Assembly: GCA_050949565.1 (NCBI GenBank)
Contig: JBMNFY010000017.1
Coordinates: 640,001 to 704,000 of the forward strand
From: Kiritimatiellia bacterium
GTDB lineage: Bacteria > Verrucomicrobiota > Kiritimatiellia > RFP12 > UBA1067
Reading direction: 5' to 3'
DNA: 64,000 nt
Below, in pieces: positions 3,218-63,486 of this stretch; the stretch's first letter is position 1, and the number at the start of each line of letters is the position of its first letter. The notes under the pieces are model-generated. The model searched no databases, had not been told where the DNA came from, and saw nothing but the letters and a program-made list of their open reading frames with translations. The position numbers were made by a program, and so were the translations under genes.

Positions 3218-4065
3218 GGCGTCTCCTTCCGCGCGTCCCCGCGGGCATTCAGCAGCTTTGTGACACGCGCCTTCAACCAGTCAGTGAGCGTCGGCGGACC
3301 GCTAGTCTCATGCGGCATGGCTTTTTTCAGCCAACGCAACAAGACCTTCTCGACCTTCTCATCGCTGTAGCGGTGCAGACGCCCGTTGTGCGCCACGGAT
3401 ATCCTGCCGGTCTCCTCGGAGACCGCCACGATCACCGCGTCGGTCTCTTCGCTCAACCCCACCGCCGCGCGGTGACGCATGCCGGAGGTCGCCAACTCTG
3501 GTTGGTTTGAAACCGGGAAAAGACAGTGTGCGGCGGCGATGCGCCCATCCTGCAGGATGACCCCGCCGTCATGCAACGGCAACGGCGGCGTAAAAATCGA
3601 GATCAGCAGTTCGTGGCTGATCAGCGCGTCCAGCTTCACCCCGGAGTCCTCATAGCTGCCCAGCGAAATACCCCGCTCGACCGCGATCAGCGCGCCGATG
3701 CGCGCCCGCGACAGGTGGGTGACCGCCTGACAGAGCTTCTCCGATGCCGACGGCTCCCGCAGGACATACTGCCGGCCGAACAGGCGCTGCCCGCCCACCA
3801 ATGCAAGCATACGCCGAATCTCCTGCTGAAACACCACTACCATGCTCAACGCCAGATAGATCAACAGGAAATAAAACACTCTGGCCAACACGTCAAAACG
3901 GAACAGATACGTGAACAGCAGCAACGAGACCACCAGCAGACAAAACCCCAGCAAAACCTGAGCATTACGCGTGCCCCTTACGAAACGGATGAGGGTATAG
4001 ATCCCGAGATACAAGATCAGGATCTGCACCACATCATTAAAACCAATCTGGACTCCGCCGAACAT
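3214..4065 (-). CDS. cdaA: Diadenylate cyclase CdaA/DacA (3 TM + DisA_N domain)
   Basis: VVVFQQEIRRML, GALIAVER, PLHDGGVI and GMRHRAAVGLSEETDA motifs. Confidence 0.93.
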   Translation of the reverse strand: MFGGVQIGFNDVVQILILYLGIYTLIRFVRGTRNAQVLLGFCLLVVSLLLFTYLFRFDVLARVFYFLLIYLALSMVVVFQQEIRRMLALVGGQRLFGRQYVLREPSASEKLCQAVTHLSRARIGALIAVERGISLGSYEDSGVKLDALISHELLISIFTPPLPLHDGGVILQDGRIAAAHCLFPVSNQPELATSGMRHRAAVGLSEETDAVIVAVSEETGRISVAHNGRLHRYSDEKVEKVLLRWLKKAMPHETSGPPTLTDWLKARVTKLLNARGDARKETP

Positions 4066-4117
4066 GTCAGCCTAGTTTGCCAAATTAATGGCTTAAGGAA
4101 AAGCCGCAAAGTTAAAA

Positions 4118-4400
4118 AGTGAGTAAGAAGTAATAAAGTAAGAGGTAAGAGGTAAGGGGTAATAAGGCGCGGGGCGCGGTGCCGGGATCGATTGTTGCAA
4201 CCACGCAATGGCTCGCAACCGTGAGAGTAAAAGCGCAATTTCAGCGTTATGAGTTCGATGTTCAGATGTTCAGCGTTCGCGGCGTTTCCCCTTGCATCTT
4301 CCCGCTTTTGACCCTACCATGGGCGGGAGCTTGGGTGAAAGGTAAGGTTTTCCACTTATTACTTATTACCCATTACCTATTATTTCTTATTCGTTATTCA
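4118..4400. repeat. Oppositely oriented degenerate heptamer tandem repeats in the cdaA/xylR divergent intergenic region
   Basis: AGTAAGA/GGTAAGA runs at ~4120-4167, GTTCAGC-like run at ~4240-4278, and TTATTAC/CTATTAT runs at ~4354-4400. Confidence 0.7.
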
Positions 4401-4406
4401 CTCTCC

Positions 4407-5582
4407 ATGAAAGGGCTGCTTCAAAAAACACCCAAGGTGGTGCTGTTCTTGGCCACAAACGAAAAGGCGGGACGTGACAAACTGCAAGGCATCTTGCGCT
4501 ATGTCCGGCTCCACACCCCTTGGACCATCCACCTGCTGGAGAATCGCATCGGCGAGCAAAAGCTCGGCGATCCGCGTGCCTGGGGCGCGACCGGCATCCT
4601 CGTGGCGCGTATGCCCGACTCCATCCGGACGGTCGCGGATGCCGCCCTGCCGACCGTCGTGATGGACTCGCGCCTGCTCTATGCAGAGCGCTTGCCGCAT
4701 GCCTCTTTCGTCACCAGCGACTCCTCCGCCATCGGCTATGCAGGCGCAGATTTTTTTCTCAAACGCGGTTTCACCCACTTCGCCTATGTGGCCGACGCCG
4801 AGGCATGGGACTGGTCCACGCTGCGCTACCAAGCCTTCAGCGAGCGCTTACAGCAGGCCGGCCACACCTGCGAGCTGTACGGTAACGTCTCTAAACTGGA
4901 GCGCGTCGACTGGAGCGTCGACCAGCAGCGTCTGGCGCGTTGGTTGCTCGAGTTGCCCAAACCGACTGCCATTCTGGCCGCGCACGATCGCCGTGCCCGG
5001 CAGGTGCTTGAAACCTGCCAGCTCGCGGGACTGGAGGTTCCCAGCGACATCGCCCTGCTCGGCGTCGACAACGAAGATATCCTGTGCGAAAACACCACGC
5101 CCACCCTCTCCAGCATCCTGCCTGATTTCGAGGCGGGCGGTTACGAAGCCGCGCATCTGCTCGAACAACTCATGCGCCGCACCCTGCGCACCCCGCAGAC
5201 CCTTTTTTACGGGGTCAAGCAGATCGTCTCGCGCGAATCGAGCCGACCGAGTCTTATCTCTGACCGACGTTTTCTGAAGGGCATTGAGTTCATCCGCCTG
5301 AACTCCAGCGAGAACATCGGCGTTCCTGATGTCGCCGAACACATGGGCGTGTCGCGGCGCATGGCCGAAATGCTGTTCCGCAGATTCGCGGGGCACTCGA
5401 TTCTCGACGAAATCCGCCAGACACGCCTCGCGCGCCTCAAAACATTCCTTCTCGAAACCGCCCTGCCCATCGGCCAAATCAGCGCGCAGTGCGGGTTTCA
5501 GAACGAAATGCACGCCAAGCGCGTTTTCAAGCAATACACCGGCCAGACCATGCGGCAGTTCCGCCGCGGCGCTTCAACCTGA
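4407..5582 (+). CDS. XylR-type regulator (periplasmic-binding-protein-like sensor domain + C-terminal AraC HTH)
   Basis: LPKPTAILAAHDRRARQVL, VPSDIALLGVDNE and AraC HTH 'ISAQCGFQNEMHAKRVFKQYTGQT'. ATG at 4407 chosen over the upstream repeat-derived extension. Confidence 0.9.
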   Translation: MKGLLQKTPKVVLFLATNEKAGRDKLQGILRYVRLHTPWTIHLLENRIGEQKLGDPRAWGATGILVARMPDSIRTVADAALPTVVMDSRLLYAERLPHASFVTSDSSAIGYAGADFFLKRGFTHFAYVADAEAWDWSTLRYQAFSERLQQAGHTCELYGNVSKLERVDWSVDQQRLARWLLELPKPTAILAAHDRRARQVLETCQLAGLEVPSDIALLGVDNEDILCENTTPTLSSILPDFEAGGYEAAHLLEQLMRRTLRTPQTLFYGVKQIVSRESSRPSLISDRRFLKGIEFIRLNSSENIGVPDVAEHMGVSRRMAEMLFRRFAGHSILDEIRQTRLARLKTFLLETALPIGQISAQCGFQNEMHAKRVFKQYTGQTMRQFRRGAST

Positions 5583-5605
5583 TAAGAACAACGCTCTTCG
5601 GTTTC

Positions 5606-6260
5606 ATCCACAGATTCTCACAGATTACGCAGATTGGGGGGGATGGCACGGCTCGGGTTTCGGTTTAACCACGAAATACACGAAATACACGAAAAGGCAT
5701 GGCTACGGGTTCGTTTAACGCAGAGGCGCAGAGGTGTGGCACGGGCATCTTGCCCGTGTTTCATGGTTTCATTTTTCGACATGATTAACATGATTGACAT
5801 GATTTCTCGCTGCGCGAGCGCATAAAGGTTGTGACGAAGCGTAGGGACGAAGTGTCGCGACGAAGTGCGGCTCGTGGAGACACTCGCCCTCCCGACCCAC
5901 TTGAAAGTTGAGCGTTGAGCGTTGAACGTTGAGCGTTCGGGATTGAAGTGCCCTTTCAGGGCACGCTGGCGCGGAGCGACGGCACCCAGAGCTACGCTTC
6001 GCTTGCCCTGGGCTAAGGTGAAGCCGCCCCTTCGGGGCTGTGCCTCCACGCACAGCGCGGAAGAAAAACTCTCAACGCTCAAGTGGCGCGGATCGCGGGG
6101 ACGCTCGCCCCCAAACAACCTCTGTGCCCTCTGTGTTCTCTGTGGTTAAACAAACCCGAGTAGCGCCACCAAAAAAACCTCTGCGCCTCTGCGCCTCTGC
6201 GTTAAAAAATCCCGAGCAGCACCACCAAAAAATCTGTGTCCATCTGTGTAATCTGTGGAT
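5606..6260. repeat. Composite intergenic repeat island (triplet-linker arrays at both ends, REP-like hairpins and heptamer runs inside)
   Basis: CACAGATT x3, ACACGAAAT x3, ACATGATT x3, GACGAAG x3, GTTGAGC x5, GTGGCACGGGCATCTTGCCCGTG, CGGCTCGTGGAGACACTCGCCCTCC, GCCCTTTCAGGGC...GCCCCTTCGGGGC, CTCTGTG x3, CTCTGCG x3, ATCTGTG x3. Confidence 0.9.
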
Positions 6261-6264
6261 TCAC

Positions 6265-8229
6265 TCAGCTTAGGCGGATCTTGCCGGCCAGCCGCATCAG
6301 GCAGATCGTCGACACGACCGATATCACGCACAGCAGACAGCCGACACCAATCGCACCGTACAGCAGTTTCCCGACACCGAACAGCGCAGTCCAGACCGCC
6401 AAGCATCCGACCATCATGCAGAGCAGGCCGGTCGGCACGTCCCAACCCTCGGTCGCCTTGGGCAGGTCCGAGGCTTCCTCGACCTTGCGCCAGCCCGAAC
6501 CGCCTGCGCGGATCTTGGTGCAGAATTTCGCCAGCACGTCCTGTTTTTCGGGCGGCGTCAGATAGGTCACCGTGAGCCAGCCCGCCGTTGTGATCAGGAT
6601 GCCGATCACTAACTTCCATGCGCTGTAGTCCATAATGTTAAAGAGGCCGGCCTCGCGCATCGCGGTTTCAATACCCAACGGTCCTGCCCCCCACTGGAAG
6701 AAGCAGGCGACCGCGAACGAGATGATCATCGCCGAGATTTCGCTCCAGGCGTTGATGCGCCACCAGAACCAGCGCAGGATATAGAGTAGACCAGTACCCG
6801 CGCCAATCTGCAGCAGGATATCGAACGAATCCTTGGCGTTACGCATCCAGAGCGCGACCAATCCGGAGAGCACCAGCAATGCCAGCATCGTGACCCGGCC
6901 GATGGCGACCGCCTTCTTCGGCGAGACGTCAGGATTGATGAAACGCGTGTAAAAATCCTGCACCACGTAGGATGAGCCCCAGTTGAGATGCGTCGCGATG
7001 GTGGACATATAGGCCGCAATCAACGACGCCACAATCAACCCCAGCCATCCTTTCGGCATCGTGGAGATCATGCCGGGGTAAGCAATGTCGTTACGCAGAA
7101 ACTGATCGTCCACCTTGGGGAAGGCACGCGCCAGACTACCCACGCCGGCCGCCTCGGCCTTGCGCTGGCGAACCTGCACACGCGCCTCGTCCGGCATGCT
7201 TTCTTTGGCGGTCTCGTACTGCTGAACCTCCGCCGTGTTCGCGGCCAGCCAGGCGCGCGCGGCCTCCTGCTCGGCCGGAGGCGTCACCGGGAACTCGACC
7301 AGCGAGACCAACGCAACGATGATCCACGGCCAAGGGCGCATTGCGTAGTGCAGGAAGTTGAAGAGCAGCGTGGCACCCACGGCATTCTTTTCATCCTTCG
7401 CCGACAGCATGCGCTGCGCGATATAGCCGCCGCCGCCCGGCTCGGCCCCGGGATACCAGACGTTCCACCACTGCACCGCGATCGGCAGAATCAAGACCGT
7501 CATCAGCGAGGAAAGCCCGCCCGCACGCGACGGAAACATCGACATCTTGGCCTGCACGTCGACATTCGCAAACAGCTCTTTAAGTGTCGTCAGGCCGCCG
7601 ACATCAGGCGATTTGACCGCATACACCGCCGCGAAAATCGCACCGACCATCGCGATCGTGTACTGATAGAAATCGGCCCAGATCGACCCCGTGAGTCCGC
7701 CGAGTGTCGCGTAAATCCCGACGCCTGCCGATGCGTACACCAGCGTCATGACCGGCGACAACCCGAACATCACCTGTCCGATCTTAATCGCGGCCAACGA
7801 CACCGTTGCCATGATCATGATGTTGAAAAACACACCGAGGTACAACGCACGGAAGCCACGCAGCACCGCCGCCGGCCGGCCACTGTAGCGGATTTCATAA
7901 AAGCCGAGATCGGTGTCGAGCGCTGAACGCCGCCACAGCTTGGCGTACACGAAGACCGTCAACATGCCCGTCAGCAGAAACGCCCACCAAGCCCAGTTGC
8001 CCGCCACGCCCTGCGTGCGCACGATGTCCGTCACGAGATTTGGCGTGTCGCACGAAAAAGTGCAAGCCACCATCGACACTCCAAGCAGCCACCACGGCAT
8101 CGAGCGGCCGGAAAGGAAAAAGTCCGACGCACTCTTACTGGAACGGCGCGCAGCGGCCGACCCCACCAGAATGACCGAAACCAAAAAACCGATGATGATC
8201 ACCGCATCCAACAACGAGATCTTTAACAT
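6265..8229 (-). CDS. Sodium:solute symporter (SSS family)
   Basis: DFFLSGRSMPWWLLGVSMVA, GGGGYIAQRMLSAKDEK, AAYMST and many TM helices. Confidence 0.93.
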   Translation of the reverse strand: MLKISLLDAVIIIGFLVSVILVGSAAARRSSKSASDFFLSGRSMPWWLLGVSMVACTFSCDTPNLVTDIVRTQGVAGNWAWWAFLLTGMLTVFVYAKLWRRSALDTDLGFYEIRYSGRPAAVLRGFRALYLGVFFNIMIMATVSLAAIKIGQVMFGLSPVMTLVYASAGVGIYATLGGLTGSIWADFYQYTIAMVGAIFAAVYAVKSPDVGGLTTLKELFANVDVQAKMSMFPSRAGGLSSLMTVLILPIAVQWWNVWYPGAEPGGGGYIAQRMLSAKDEKNAVGATLLFNFLHYAMRPWPWIIVALVSLVEFPVTPPAEQEAARAWLAANTAEVQQYETAKESMPDEARVQVRQRKAEAAGVGSLARAFPKVDDQFLRNDIAYPGMISTMPKGWLGLIVASLIAAYMSTIATHLNWGSSYVVQDFYTRFINPDVSPKKAVAIGRVTMLALLVLSGLVALWMRNAKDSFDILLQIGAGTGLLYILRWFWWRINAWSEISAMIISFAVACFFQWGAGPLGIETAMREAGLFNIMDYSAWKLVIGILITTAGWLTVTYLTPPEKQDVLAKFCTKIRAGGSGWRKVEEASDLPKATEGWDVPTGLLCMMVGCLAVWTALFGVGKLLYGAIGVGCLLCVISVVSTICLMRLAGKIRLS

Positions 8230-10933: not shown

Positions 10934-10962
10934 TCGCGATTAAAAAAATGCGGCGACCACAC

Positions 10963-11324
10963 GGGGGCGAATAAGCCGGATTCTGTTCACCGCCCGGAGG
11001 CGGCTCCGATCATTCATCTAAGCAATCTACCCGGAACCCTATCCGGCTATTACGCCGGAGCGACACGGGCCGCGTCTCGAGTCCCCTATTTGATCTTGCT
11101 CCAGAGGGGGTTTGCCCTGCGGCGGCGCTCTCGCGCCTGCCCGGTGGTCTCTTACACCACCTTTTCACCCTTACCCGGCGCGAACGCCGGGCGGTTTGTT
11201 TTCTGTGGCGCTTTCCGTCGGCGCCGATCTGGCAGCGCCCCTCCGGCCTTAACGGCCGGACCTCTTACCCTGCGGAGTCCGGACTTTCCTCCCCTGCCAA
11301 AGCAGGAGCGATCGGTCACTCCCC
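10963..11324 (-). ncRNA. rnpB: RNase P RNA (bacterial class A)
   Basis: The minus strand contains GAGGAAAGTCCGGACTC near the 5' end, GGGTAAGGGTGAAAAGGTGGTGTAAGAGACCACC, GGCAAACCCC and the 3' AACAGAATCCGGCTTAT signature. Confidence 0.96.
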
Positions 11325-11411
11325 ATGCGGCCGCCGCAAAGCATCGCTAGCGGCAACCCAAACCGTGGAGAGCCGCCCCGCGGCGAATCTCTCCCATCGG
11401 CTAAATCCATC

Positions 11412-26654: not shown

Positions 26655-26765
26655 TCTCACACAAAGGCACAAAGGACGCGAAGGGGTTTTTGGAGCCTGC
26701 TCGGGGTTTGTTTAACGCAGAGGCGCAGAGACGCAGAGGTGTGGCACGGGCATCTTGCCCGTGTC
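26655..26765. repeat. Triplet-linker-triplet unit plus GTGG REP hairpin
   Basis: CACAAAGG/GACGCGAAGG triplet, linker GGTTTTTGGAGCCTGCTCGGGGTTTGTTT, ACGCAGAG x3, GTGGCACGGGCATCTTGCCCGTG. Confidence 0.8.
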
Positions 26766-33733: not shown

Positions 33734-34147
33734 CCCTTCCGCGCTGCGCGCGGAGTTAACATTTAGGAGTTAGGATTTAGGAGTTTTTTGACTTCTGCGT
33801 TCGACGTTCGACGTTCAGCGTTCAGAAGCGGCGGTGCCGCGCAAGACAGGCGAATGGCCGGTGCCAAGCTATGTGGCACGGGCATCTTGCCCGTGTGGCG
33901 GCGCGGAGCGCCGCCCGGACGAGCAACGCTCGTCCCTCCCAGCGCAGCACAAGCCAGAGATGGCACCCCCTAAAAACCTCTGCGTCTCTGCGTTAAATAA
34001 ACCCGAACCATGAAACACATGAAACTTCATGAAAAATCATGCCATGCCTTTCCGTGTGTTCAGTGTATTCCGTGGTCAAATAAACCCGAGCCATGCCCCC
34101 CAAAAAAACCTTCGTGCCCTTCGTGCCTTCGTGTGAGAAAACCCAAC
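33734..34147. repeat. Composite repeat island with triplet-linker array
   Basis: CCGCGC..GCGCGG hairpin + TTAGGAT heptamers, GTTCGAC heptamers, GTGG and GGAG REP hairpins, and four triplets joined by AAATAAACCCGAGCCATGCC-type linkers. Confidence 0.88.
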
Positions 34148-42154: not shown

Positions 42155-42318
42155 CGGCGCCGCGCCCCGCGCACAGCGCGGCGCTTGTCATCGCAAGATG
42201 CGTCACCAGACCTGTGGGCGGCGTTCACGCCGCCACCTCTTCAGGTTTCACGCCTTTGCGTGATAAAAAATCCTAAATCCTAATTCCTAAACGCAAACTC
42301 CGCGCACAACGCGCGCGG
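42155..42318. repeat. Short repeat island between convergent genes (hairpins + CCTAAAT heptamers)
   Basis: ATCCTAAATCCTAATTCCTAAA-N-CCGCGC..GCGCGG, the reverse complement of the module at 33734 and 10788. Confidence 0.7.
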
Positions 42319-52527: not shown

Positions 52528-52665
52528 CGGGTTTCAGGTTTCGGGGTTTCAGGGTTTCACTTGAGCGTTGAGCGTTGAAAGTTGGGCGTTGAACGTTATT
52601 GAAGCGCCCTCTTGCAGTGCCCAAAAAAATCTTAGTGCCCTTCGTGCCTTCGTGTGAGAAAAACA
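52528..52665. repeat. Repeat island (GGGTTTCA octamers, GTTGAGC heptamers, linker + CTTCGTGC triplet)
   Basis: Directly visible; same families as at 5903 and 34110. Confidence 0.8.
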
Positions 52666-54063: not shown

Positions 54064-54345
54064 GTTTGTTTAACGCAGAGGCACAGAGACGCAGAGTTTT
54101 TTATGGTGTAACGGCGTGACCGCCGCTGGGGAGGGACGAGCGTTTGCTCGTCCGCGGGCAAGCAGACGCTTGCCCCTCCCGGTGCTCCGCAATGAAACCT
54201 GAAACCGTCCTTCCGCGCAGCGGAAGGCGGCTCGTGGGGACACTCGCCCTCCAAAAAACGCTGAACGTCGAACTCTGAACTCTGAAGTAAAAAAACTCCT
54301 AAATCCTAAATCCTAAATCCCGCCTTCCGCGCGCAGCGCAGAAGG
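54064..54345. repeat. Repeat island inside the thi operon; 54112-54254 is an inverted copy of 62937-63081
   Basis: Three GGAG-type hairpins, ACGCAGAG triplet, and CCTAAAT heptamers overlapping the thiH stop. Confidence 0.88.
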
Positions 54346-56520: not shown

Positions 56521-56560
56521 AAAACAAAAAAGGAATGCACGCCGGTCGGGTGCATTCCCT
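56521..56560 (-). terminator. Riboswitch expression-platform terminator
   Basis: GGAATGCAC-CCGACCGGC-GTGCATTCC-TTTTTTGTTTT between the aptamer and thiS. Confidence 0.85.
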
Positions 56561-56564
56561 GTCT

Positions 56565-56655
56565 GAGTCTCCCTTCGCCGGCATGATCCGGATCAGGTTC
56601 TGCGGGTGTGATCTCAGCTCTTCCGCGCGGAAGAACACCCCGGCCGTTTGGTGTC
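56565..56655 (-). promoter_or_regulatory. TPP riboswitch
   Basis: GGGGTG...GCTGAGATCACACCCGCAGAACCTGATCCGGATCATGCCGGCGAAGGGA upstream of thiS. Promoter TTGACA-17-TACGCT at 56686-56658. Confidence 0.96.
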
Positions 56656-62535: not shown

Positions 62536-62667
62536 CGTTTCTCCCTGAGTTCTGTTTACGCCGCCATCCCGCGCCCTTGCGCCTTTTTGCATACCTCAGA
62601 ACTGTAACCCCGAAATCACTTTGGAACAAGCGCTTTCTGCGGCAGCGCGGTAATCGGTTAGTGACAG

Positions 62668-63290
62668 GGGTGTGGTGCTCGGTTTTTTTATCACACGAAG
62701 GCACAAAGGACACGAAGGTTTTTTTGGGGGGGGCATTGCTCGGGTTTATTTAACAACGGAATACACTGAACACACGGAAAGGCACAGCTCTGCTGTTTCA
62801 CGCGAAGACGCGAAGATTGGAGGGCGAGTGTCCCCACGAGCCGCCTGGACGCGGCAATGGAGGGCGAGTGTCCCCACGAGCCGCCTGGACGCGGCAATGG
62901 AGGGCGAGTGTCCCCACGAGCCGCCTGGACGCGGCAATGGAGGGCGAGTGTCCCCACGAGCCGCCTTCCGCTGTGCGGAAGGATGGTTTCAGGGTTTCAT
63001 TGCGGAGCACCGGGAGGGGCAAGCGTCTGCTTGCCCGCGGACGAGCAGACGCTCGTCCCTCCCCGGCGGCGGTCACGCCGCCACACGGGCAAGACACACA
63101 CCTCTGCACCTCCGTGTTAAAAAAACCGATCCTCCAAAACCCTTTGCGTTCTGTGCGTTCTTTGCGGCTATTACCGTAGCCATGCTCCAAAAATCTGCGG
63201 CATCTGCGAAATCTGCGGATCAAAAAAACCGAGCCTTGCCAGAAACCAAAGAGCGTTGAAGATTCAACTGCTCTTTTTAGGCTAACCGAT
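62668..63290. repeat. Composite repeat island with oppositely oriented triplet-linker arrays at both ends and a REP core
   Basis: Left arm mirrors 34044-34140; core contains a 40-bp tandem and the 142-bp module; right arm has three triplets joined by AAAAAACCGA-type linkers. Confidence 0.88.
62819..62966 (+). repeat. 40-bp perfect tandem repeat x3.7 of a GGAG-type REP hairpin
   Basis: GGAGGGCGAGTGTCCCCACGAGCCGCCTGGACGCGGCAAT at 62819, 62859 and 62899, with a partial copy at 62939. Confidence 0.95.
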
Positions 63291-63486
63291 TACGCGAGGG
63301 TTGGCGGAGCGCCGCTTGCCTCCAATCTGTTCGATAGCTTTGCGGAGCATCGCGAGTATCAATTTTGAGAATTTTTAGGGTTGACTTTTCCCCCCCCCGC
63401 ACAATGCGTGCCAACCATAGGGACCGGTGGGTTGCCGGTTAATCCTACGTGATGGTAATGAACAGAACCCAACTGAAAGGCTATTT

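Follow-up and report, generated by a model that had tools for sequence, protein, structure and literature searches.

What are the arrays of three-word repeats, joined by one constant linker, that fill intergenic spaces in a 64,000-nt stretch of a Kiritimatiellia bacterium genome (assembly G000, contig C17, positions 640001-704000; hereafter the window), and from what were they built? The original prediction, made from the letters of the window, offered two ideas, namely a site-specific acquisition or targeting mechanism and a non-autonomous element family whose enzyme is encoded elsewhere, and mentioned a link between such triplets and genes of GxxExxY proteins. Our results fit the second idea. 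In our best reading, the chains are mosaics of "arm plus leader" stubs of selfish cassettes, similar to bacterial interspersed mosaic elements (BIMEs), and the arrays are probably gene-less, non-autonomous remains of GxxExxY-type palindromic cassettes that were reshuffled at the linker. The window was analyzed together with its source genome (4.66 Mb, 60% G+C, 21 contigs, 85% coding, 92% completeness), the congeners G001 to G006, of which G004 and G002 are the two closest relatives, and further genomes of the class.

Island 1 (5583-6264) occupies the space between the stop codons of the convergent genes 4179-5582 (plus strand) and 6265-8229 (minus strand). It comprises two outward-facing arms around a core of hairpins resembling repetitive extragenic palindromic (REP) sequences and further triplets, in the following order.

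5606-5634, minus strand: outermost left arm, an ATCTGYG-type triplet whose plus strand reads ATCCACAGAT / TCTCACAGAT / TACGCAGAT.
5635-5668, minus strand: linker, TGGGGGGGATGGCACGGCTCGGGTTTCGGTTTAA in the reverse sense, which matches the linker profile and aligns with other linkers.
5669-5694, minus strand: TTTCGTG-type triplet, CACGAAATA x3 (period 9, 2.8 copies, 100% matches).
5695-5718, minus strand: short linker variant AGGCATGGCTACGGGTTCGTTTAA, from sequence inspection.
5719-5734, minus strand: CTCTGCG-type doublet, CGCAGAGG x2, from sequence inspection and tandem-array detection.
5735-6118, no strand: core, with REP-like hairpins at 5735-5759, about 5945-5964 and about 6020-6040, and with CATGATT x3 (5779-5804), GACGAAG x3 (5833-5867) and GTTGAGC x4 (5907-5937).
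6119-6147, plus strand: CTCTGTG x3 module with the tail GTT.
6148-6177, plus strand: linker AAACAAACCCGAGTAGCGCCACCAAAAAAA.
6178-6205, plus strand: CTCTGCG x3 module with the tail TTAA (period 8, 3.0 copies, 100%).
6206-6231, plus strand: linker variant AAAATCCCGAGCAGCACCACCAAAAA.
6232-6260, plus strand: outermost right arm, ATCTGTG x3 ending in GGAT, 4 nt from the stop codon of the gene 6265-8229 (minus strand).

The alternation of triplet and linker was seen here, and at every other site for which it had been claimed, as originally described. Both outer ends of island 1 read ATCTGTGGAT / ATCCACAGAT; the arms at 5606-5634 and 6232-6260 carry the same word in inverted orientation, giving inverted ends of 29 nt, and the whole island as single-stranded DNA folds into one long hairpin (z = -9.0). 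DNA contigs that come from two other studies are identical to the window at 3500-5743 and 6191-7480, which rules out an assembly artefact in the arms. The DNA contigs and the RNA-library contigs described below break within the core, and no unit-level variants were seen in them.

Across the genome, each module is a run of about 27 bp with exactly three words of 7-9 nt, separated by spacers of 1-3 nt. The first 500 kb of contig C17 contained 114 short-period tandem arrays, versus five in shuffled sequence. Of 302 period-8 arrays, 225 had a copy number of about 3.0, as had 105 of 138 with period 9. The main families were capped at three copies (TCCGTG, 154 modules with three and 47 with two; TCTGTG, 115 and 53; TTCGTG, 83 and 36). 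Modules were detected through words of the form NTYNGYG; 644 of the 728 with at least three copies fell outside called genes, although most of the genome is coding. About ten module types recur in chains, each with its own tail (CTCTGTG-GTT, CTCTGCG-TTAAA, ATCTGTG-GAT, CTTCGTG-TGAGAAA, CTTGGCG-GTTCC). Local amplification of units of module plus linker has also given arrays with 10-20 tandem copies (periods 45, 115, 120 and 128 bp) at C17:453127-455436, C17:1432020-1432972, C17:114-1800 and C15:16570-17290 of G000.

The linker is about 29 nt long, with the consensus AAA-CCGAGC-nn-TGCC(C)n-AAAAAA. The scan of the genome and its relatives that the original prediction had proposed was carried out with the pattern AACCCGAGCNNTGCCNNNNAAAA (at most one mismatch, the reversed pattern serving as control) and with a 29-nt profile (consensus AAAAAACCCGAGCAATGCCCCCCAAAAAA). 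In G000 the pattern gave 89 matches and the reversed control none, while the profile gave 278 hits. A strict triplet stood on at least one flank of 233 of these hits and on both flanks of 90, compared with 309 and 24 of 3000 random intergenic points, so the linker is not independent of the triplets. Its core AAA-CCGAGC-nn-TGCC is almost invariant and only the two middle positions are free (CA 24, AA 24, AG 23 and AC 12 of 97). Successive linkers lie 55-59 bp apart. Of 109 distinct same-sense pairs of adjacent modules, 50 contained the strict linker core by count; inspection by eye added about 28 with diverged copies and seven in which the linker was split by a CATGAAAC module. The latter module enters the linker directly after CCCGA in seven distinct places, as well as at 34007-34037 of the window.

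The pattern was searched in 131 genomes of the class. It matched 89 times in G000, 36 times in G004 and 13 times in G002, whereas four other congeners and 24 further relatives had no match and 100 other genomes had 0-1; the linker is thus carried by three of the 131 genomes, and elsewhere it stays at the chance level. An exact 17-base version of it had 63 matches in 596 Gb (one genome per species, 185,579 species) against about 70 expected by chance, and more than one contig matched in a single Kiritimatiellia metagenome-assembled genome only. The CTCTGCG x3 module with TTAA, for its part, is present in 17 of the 31 relatives; G000 has 199 copies of it and the congeners have 2-55. Judged from these distributions, the linker is young and specific to one sub-clade, and the modules are older than the linker. 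Congeners that lack it join the same arms through a bare T7 run, and in G026, from another family of the order, CTCTGCG-type modules are chained by a different constant linker, TTTTAACTACGACTTTTAAAAA, within a larger recurring repeat. Chaining by a constant linker therefore recurs among lineages, with linkers that are specific to each. The chains of G026 are located at C96:9400-10500, C100:31700-32300 and C14:2300-2998 of that genome.

When modules and linkers were clustered at 150 bp, 177 clusters had plus-strand units only, 170 had minus-strand units only, 43 ran from minus to plus, and one ran from plus to minus. Since 43 clusters diverge and one converges, the arms point outward, and the inverted arms around hairpin cores were found as the original prediction had described them. 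There were 73 distinct combinations of module, linker and module; the same type stood on both sides in just eight, and both orders occurred (CTCTGCG then CTCTGTG five times, the reverse seven times). Module order is therefore combinatorial and not the fixed order of a single miniature inverted-repeat transposable element (MITE). Most chains contain 1-3 linkers, and they are scattered over more than 140 sites of the genome.

These features also bear on the acquisition idea, taken as an adaptive array of a constant 29-nt repeat and acquired modules in the manner of clustered regularly interspaced short palindromic repeats (CRISPR). A repeat of about 29 nt, a "spacer" of about 27 nt and the period of 55-59 do resemble CRISPR. 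However, the "spacers" belong to about ten families that recur, each internally a triplet, the chains are short and dispersed, the linker belongs to one sub-clade, and the repeats lack palindromic structure and have no Rfam match, so that we give this explanation practically no credence.

The link to GxxExxY genes was borne out. The seven TIGR04256 (GxxExxY; PF13366) matches of G000 represent five intact genes and one broken gene, and each of the five intact genes has a word of its own, whose triplets flank it in inverted orientation (AACCATGAAACACATGAAACTTCATGAAA ... gene ... TTTCATGAAGTTTCATGTGTTTCATGGTT in one case). GxxExxY genes with CATGAAAC-type and CTCTGCG-type arms lie at C17:565156-565494 and C15:17355-17708, respectively. 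A family search of whole genomes across the class gave 27 usable loci from other genera, for which 30 open reading frames (ORFs) from the same loci served as controls. An inverted flank match of at least 16/20 was present in 14 of the 27 loci and in none of the controls; triplets stood on both sides in 14 loci and no control, and on at least one side in 21 loci, against four controls. Moreover, the CTTYGTG type, which is abundant and geneless in G000, brackets a GxxExxY gene in G004. Because arms of the same design bracket GxxExxY genes in G000, in the class and in G004, the modules of the window can be read as gene-less copies of cassette arms. The association thus held as far as the bracketing of genes by arms goes, while the GxxExxY proteins may act on the arrays in trans; a GxxExxY protein or another enzyme that recognizes the arms is proposed, together with an enzymatic or recombinational step.

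A gene-bearing CTCTGCG-type cassette of G004 suggests where the linker came from. In this cassette TTTTTTGGGGCATTGCT comes after the left arm, then AAGGAGAG (the ribosome-binding site) and the gene, and stacked copies of "arm plus leader" lie upstream. The leader aligns with the linkers of the window base for base, through a T-run, a G-run and GCATTGCT, which demonstrates that half of the linker is homologous to the leader of a real cassette. In addition, chains start with the 3' half of the linker and end with its 5' half. Because the leader aligns with the linkers and the chains begin and end in half-linkers, the linker appears to be a junction between the leader stub of one cassette end and the outer extension TTAAAnAAACCCGA of the next. 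A separate candidate, a decayed ribosome-binding site with start codon, was dropped: ATG occupies the variable pair in just 24 of 97 distinct linkers, and no real gene begins with the linker, the ORFs there being 11-161 aa long and unrelated. G-runs do follow the left arms in real cassettes.

According to this cassette model, the parent would have been a selfish element with a gene for a PD-(D/E)XK nuclease of about 130 aa between two inverted arms, each with three copies of a word. A single cassette end would make up each repeating unit of about 55-59 bp: on the outside the extension, then the triplet arm, and on the inside a leader stub (A-run, C-run, GCAnnGC). The linker would form wherever such a stub meets the outer extension of the following unit. 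The leader seen here would have arisen in the common ancestor of the G000 species and its two closest relatives. Units would line up in head-to-tail order, outer ends facing the flanking genes, and be reshuffled at the linker, through homologous recombination of the 25-nt repeats or through enzymatic cutting and rejoining. Because all units share the linker yet carry different arms, such recombination or rejoining would delete, add and exchange units.

Alternatively, the linker core of about 17 nt, CCCGAGCnnTGCCCCCC, might itself be a tiny mobile insertion that targets the A/T run between arms, an idea reminiscent of the small dispersed repeats reportedly described in Nostoc. The linker does resemble the bare T7 run of the linker-less congeners plus about 17 nt, and the near invariance of the core outside its two middle positions and its restriction to one sub-clade would suit a mobile unit. 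Against this, the core almost never occurs away from arms, the profile hits that lack an adjacent triplet being mostly weak; it is not palindromic; no pair of empty and filled T-runs was found at the compared orthologous sites; and the leader of a gene-bearing cassette equals its inner half. We consider such an insertion quite unlikely, and the junction of cassette ends is retained below.

Reshuffling was visible between sister species. All 15 orthologous sites compared differed in the presence or content of the arrays, and five other orthologous islands showed at least 96.5% identity over the called intergenic stretch. One chain differed between G000 and G004 by exactly one 57-bp unit of CTTCGTG x3 plus linker, the shorter allele having a chimeric linker. 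At another site, identical flanks enclose CTCTGTG x3 in one species and CTCTGCG x2 in the other, and at a further one the outermost module was kept and the next was not (both G000 vs. G004/G002). Whole units are gained, lost and swapped between sister species, which bears out the unit-wise turnover that the original prediction had proposed to look for. Because the CATGAAAC insertions and the one-unit indel use the same border after CCCGA, a preferred joining point is hinted at. Ton-Hoang et al. (2012; PMC3333891) report that TnpA_REP cuts and rejoins at BIME linkers in vitro.

The site of island 1 was compared as well. In G003, G001 and G005 the two stop codons are 7-17 bp apart with nothing between them; no target-site duplication was visible against these empty sites, where the left junction is not clean. 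G004 contains only ATCCGCAGAT...-23 bp-...ATCTGCGGAT, a minimal 80-bp arm pair with the ATCTGYG-type outermost left arm of island 1, and G006 contains a different filler ending in CTGTGGAT. At the site of the chain 33959-34141, four congeners have unrelated repeats.

The arm pair of G004 would also be expected if complete palindromic elements (arm, linker as inner stem, arm) inserted like Russian dolls at the center of a resident one, with the outer arms being the oldest. Island 1 has matching outermost ATCTGTG arms and, inside them, CGCAGAG/CTCTGCG arms in nested order, and it folds into a single hairpin; the outermost module was the conserved one at three other sites, and the outward polarity is as nesting would produce. 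The genome-wide picture speaks against it, since the types of left and right arms match weakly (longest common subsequence 15 vs. 9.9 +/- 3.5 when shuffled, a value reached by 133 of 2000 shuffles), island 2 has no module type common to its two arms, 347 of 397 clusters are one-sided at the clustering distance used, and the arrangement of two facing linkers with a short loop was not seen among the 43 divergent clusters. We therefore regard nesting as unlikely.

A use of the chains for the host was considered because of their position. Of 127 one-sided clusters with a linker, 103 had the outer end nearer a gene, and in 73 of these the nearest gene presents its 3' end, 41 of them within 40 bp; the counts are approximate because genes were called with a crude home-made ORF scorer. 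Contigs from RNA libraries reach from both flanking genes into the arms of island 1 (X15, 4342-5743 and 6190-7480; X16, 5336-5662 and 6172-6945), which fits 3'-untranslated-region transcription into the arms, though DNA carry-over may contribute, and the contigs give neither ends nor strand. Chains could accordingly offer arrays of binding sites to a regulatory or nucleoid protein, or act at 3' ends to stabilize or end transcripts as REP/BIME sequences do in Escherichia coli; the copy number of exactly three suggests constraint, and so may the fact that some islands are more conserved than the genes beside them. Yet congeners have other contents, or none, at these intergenic positions, module content varies from site to site, the neighboring genes are unrelated, a scan of island 1 for terminators and promoters gave nothing in the arms, where no terminator-like hairpin lies, and no Rfam family matches the island arms. 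A host function as the explanation is thus improbable. The Rfam hits of the window were limited to an RNase P RNA, class A (10956-11327, minus strand, 208.8 bits), and a thiamine pyrophosphate riboswitch (56553-56652, minus strand, 61.9 bits), both ordinary and unrelated to the repeats.

Several observations weigh against an origin of the arrays from GxxExxY cassettes. None of the seven TIGR04256 matches lies inside the window, and it is because of this lack of a PF13366 gene that its copies are read as gene-less derivatives. The abundant types ATCTGTG, CTCTGTG, CTTCGTG and CTTGGCG have no cognate gene in the 92%-complete genome, and the number of GxxExxY genes (six in G000 and 1-4 in five congeners, with 3 and 1 in the linker carriers) does not track the expansion. 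Only about the first 22 nt of the linker match the leader well while the remainder differs, and in the copy of the CTCTGCG-type cassette that G000 itself carries, the leader has diverged. At one site, the module in common with G002 sits inside the chain of G002 and not at its outer end. Left and right arms rarely share module types, so the islands are not simply nested whole elements. At C17:174680-177679, the intergenic DNA of the island is 99.6% identical to that of G002 (470 nt) and the flanking coding DNA 89.0% (2530 nt), which could reflect constraint, recent exchange or gene conversion; over 10 pairs, island versus flanking-gene conservation was mixed, with four higher (two marginally) and four lower.

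A further such point comes from TIGR02436 four-helix-bundle genes, of which G000 has 15 matches. All nine whose flanks were inspected lie between inverted heptamer arrays. These arrays are a parallel system with an unrelated protein, and because such genes carry analogous arms, the arms may serve a shared machinery instead of the encoded protein. The heptamer is specific to the locus (GGAGTTA...TAACTCC and TAGTGGC...GCCACTA, for example), with 3 to more than 20 copies, at G000 sites such as C20:20564-20884, C17:395446-395766, C17:399225-399545, C18:11315-11632 and C8:62233-62547.

The GxxExxY protein was also modeled. No solved structure was found for it by sequence, and a 2012 survey of PD-(D/E)XK proteins gives the function of PF13366 as unknown. 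The predicted model had a predicted local distance difference test (pLDDT) value of 93.4, and a fold search with it returned a weak likeness to Cas4 and lambda exonuclease (E about 5e-4, template modeling score 0.55). The complex predicted for three copies is head-to-tail, with helix 29-45 packed on strands 62-73 and a score of 0.47 against 0.19 for the best of three controls; at least 81% of contacts agreed between runs and partner pLDDT was at least 80. In a calibration made with two copies and other alignments, 20 of 30 proteins whose solved structure is a pair of one chain attained this docking mark, compared with one of 23 solved as single chains. The predicted packing would suit direct repeats, although the docking pass may echo the solved oligomeric relatives Cas4 and lambda exonuclease, which likewise counts against the cassette origin. 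A bolder version holds that the three-word arms are a readable recognition code, on which GxxExxY variants would each assemble head to tail on their own word, the chains being docking or homing pads of multiple specificity and the linker a site of enzymatic exchange at which several variants, whether resident or newly arrived, might cut and rejoin. We regard this as a long shot; if true, it would constitute a new class of small, modular systems of sequence-specific DNA recognition.

The cassette-end mosaics were compared with known repeat systems, beginning with the E. coli BIMEs, which consist of REP sequences and are associated with TnpA_REP/RAYT (Ton-Hoang et al., 2012, PMC3333891; Nunvar et al., 2010, PMC2817692); in the model set out in the former, cleavage and rejoining at the linker diversifies the arrays. 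Both are intergenic mosaics of few unit types with short recurring linkers, some of them well conserved (the strict core in 50 of 109 pairs here), both vary in copy number and make-up by locus and undergo tandem amplification, and both favor gene 3' ends. In contrast to REP sequences, which are imperfect palindromes of 20-40 nt, the units here are three direct words of 7-9 nt, and REP-like hairpins are confined to the cores. Units within a chain have the same sense, whereas REP and iREP alternate; the associated gene encodes a PD-(D/E)XK GxxExxY protein and not a Y1 HUH transposase; and no conserved GTAG-type tetranucleotide is present. With the REPINs and RAYTs of Pseudomonas (Bertels and Rainey, 2011, PMC3116915), the chains have in common that they are short, non-autonomous intergenic repeats of lineage-specific sequence with a single-copy gene as the presumed mobilizer, but REPINs are doublets of one palindrome replicating as a unit, whereas the islands are varied combinations of about ten arm types.

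Plain GxxExxY cassettes have the same arm design of three words in inverted pairs and come and go between genomes; the window copies are gene-less, and head-to-tail chaining by a constant sub-clade linker and unit-wise turnover set the chains apart. Intervening sequences of 23S rRNA can carry an ORF of the four-helix-bundle family (PF05635/TIGR02436). They resemble the TIGR02436 loci of G000 in having a small ORF between inverted repeats, while these loci differ from the window chains in fold and in the variable copy number of their arrays, and no linker chains were seen in them. Like a MITE, island 1 carries inverted ends (29 nt) and is missing from orthologous sites of congeners; no target-site duplication was visible at it, and, unlike MITEs, the islands differ from one another in composition, none being a copy of another. 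The recurring triplet "spacers" differ from the unique ones of a CRISPR array. The system is BIME-like in its logic, but by the defining features of REP/BIME, MITE and CRISPR it belongs to none of them.

A literature search, with most subscription journals outside its coverage, returned no description of triplet arms or such linkers, and the selfish-cassette system is apparently undescribed. New here are the lineage-specific linker, the match of its inner half to a cassette leader, the comparison of the island 1 site and the unit-level differences between sister species. The chains would represent a second mosaic repeat system, unrelated to REP/BIME-RAYT, with units and linkers, variation by locus and amplification of its own, built from the ends of a very widespread, uncharacterized nuclease cassette. 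The sub-clade linker is a natural tag that dates the expansion after the split from four congeners and exposes gain or loss of single units and module exchange between sister species. The arm, the linker and the CCCGA/GC junction of this recently active system provide concrete substrates with which the function of GxxExxY proteins becomes testable. On the practical side, chains at hundreds of sites break the assemblies of this common anaerobic-digester organism, which is present in 15 studies of digesters and landfills.

The remaining chains of the window have the following composition.

26656-26739, minus strand: chain with a CTTYGTG-type triplet (26656-26684), linker (26685-26715) and CTCTGCG x3 (26716-26739), followed by a REP-like hairpin.
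33959-34141, plus strand: chain with a half-linker; CTCTGCG x2 (33977-33997); linker split by the CATGAAAC x3 module (34007-34037); TTCCGTG-type x3 (34050-34077); linker (34078-34108); and CTTCGTG x3 with the tail TGAGAAAA (34109-34141).
52614-52663, plus strand: half-linker GCAGTGCCCAAAAAAA and CTTAGTG/CTTCGTG x3 with the tail TGAGAAAAA.
62671-62816, minus strand: left arm of island 2, with a half-linker; CTTCGTG-type x3 (62691-62718); linker (62719-62753); TTCCGTG-type x3 (62754-62779); a stub; and CTTCGCG x2 (62800-62816).
63101-63241, plus strand: right arm of island 2, with a degenerate CTCTGCG-type module; a short linker; CTTTGCG x3 (63140-63170); linker variant (63171-63192); ATCTGCG x3 (63193-63220); and a half-linker (63221-63241).

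Island 2 is accompanied by other repeats. Between its arms, 62818-62966 is a perfect tandem array of 40 bp x 3.7 (TGGAGGGCGAGTGTCCCCACGAGCCGCCTGGACGCGGCAA), a sequence found regularly upstream of CTTCGCG modules elsewhere in the genome. A repeat end, CTGTCACTAACCGATTAC, lies at 62650-62670 and 63284-63294; it has 85 genome-wide matches at up to two mismatches, often in facing pairs 250-700 bp apart, occurs also in G005 and G006, and directly abuts a CTTCGTG module with half-linker in five cases, including the one at 62650. Positions 63265-63283 are one end of a 286-bp MITE with about 40 copies and 19-bp inverted ends (GCCTAAAAAGAGCAGTTGA ... TCAACTGCTCTTTTTAGGC), a full copy being, for example, C17:1869852-1870137; its interior holds a TTCCGTG-type arm pair whose 14-nt spacer includes the linker core GAGCCATGCC. 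Finally, other tandem arrays of 7-8 nt adjoin genes of the window at 4138-4382, 33752-33825, 42268-42291, 52529-52597 and 54257-54320, with the units GTAAGAG, TATTACC, GGAGTTA, CGTTCGA, AAATCCT, GGGTTTCA, TTGAGCG and TCCTAAA; AGGATTT-type (88 arrays) and AGGAGTT-type (48 arrays) units are among the commonest in the genome.

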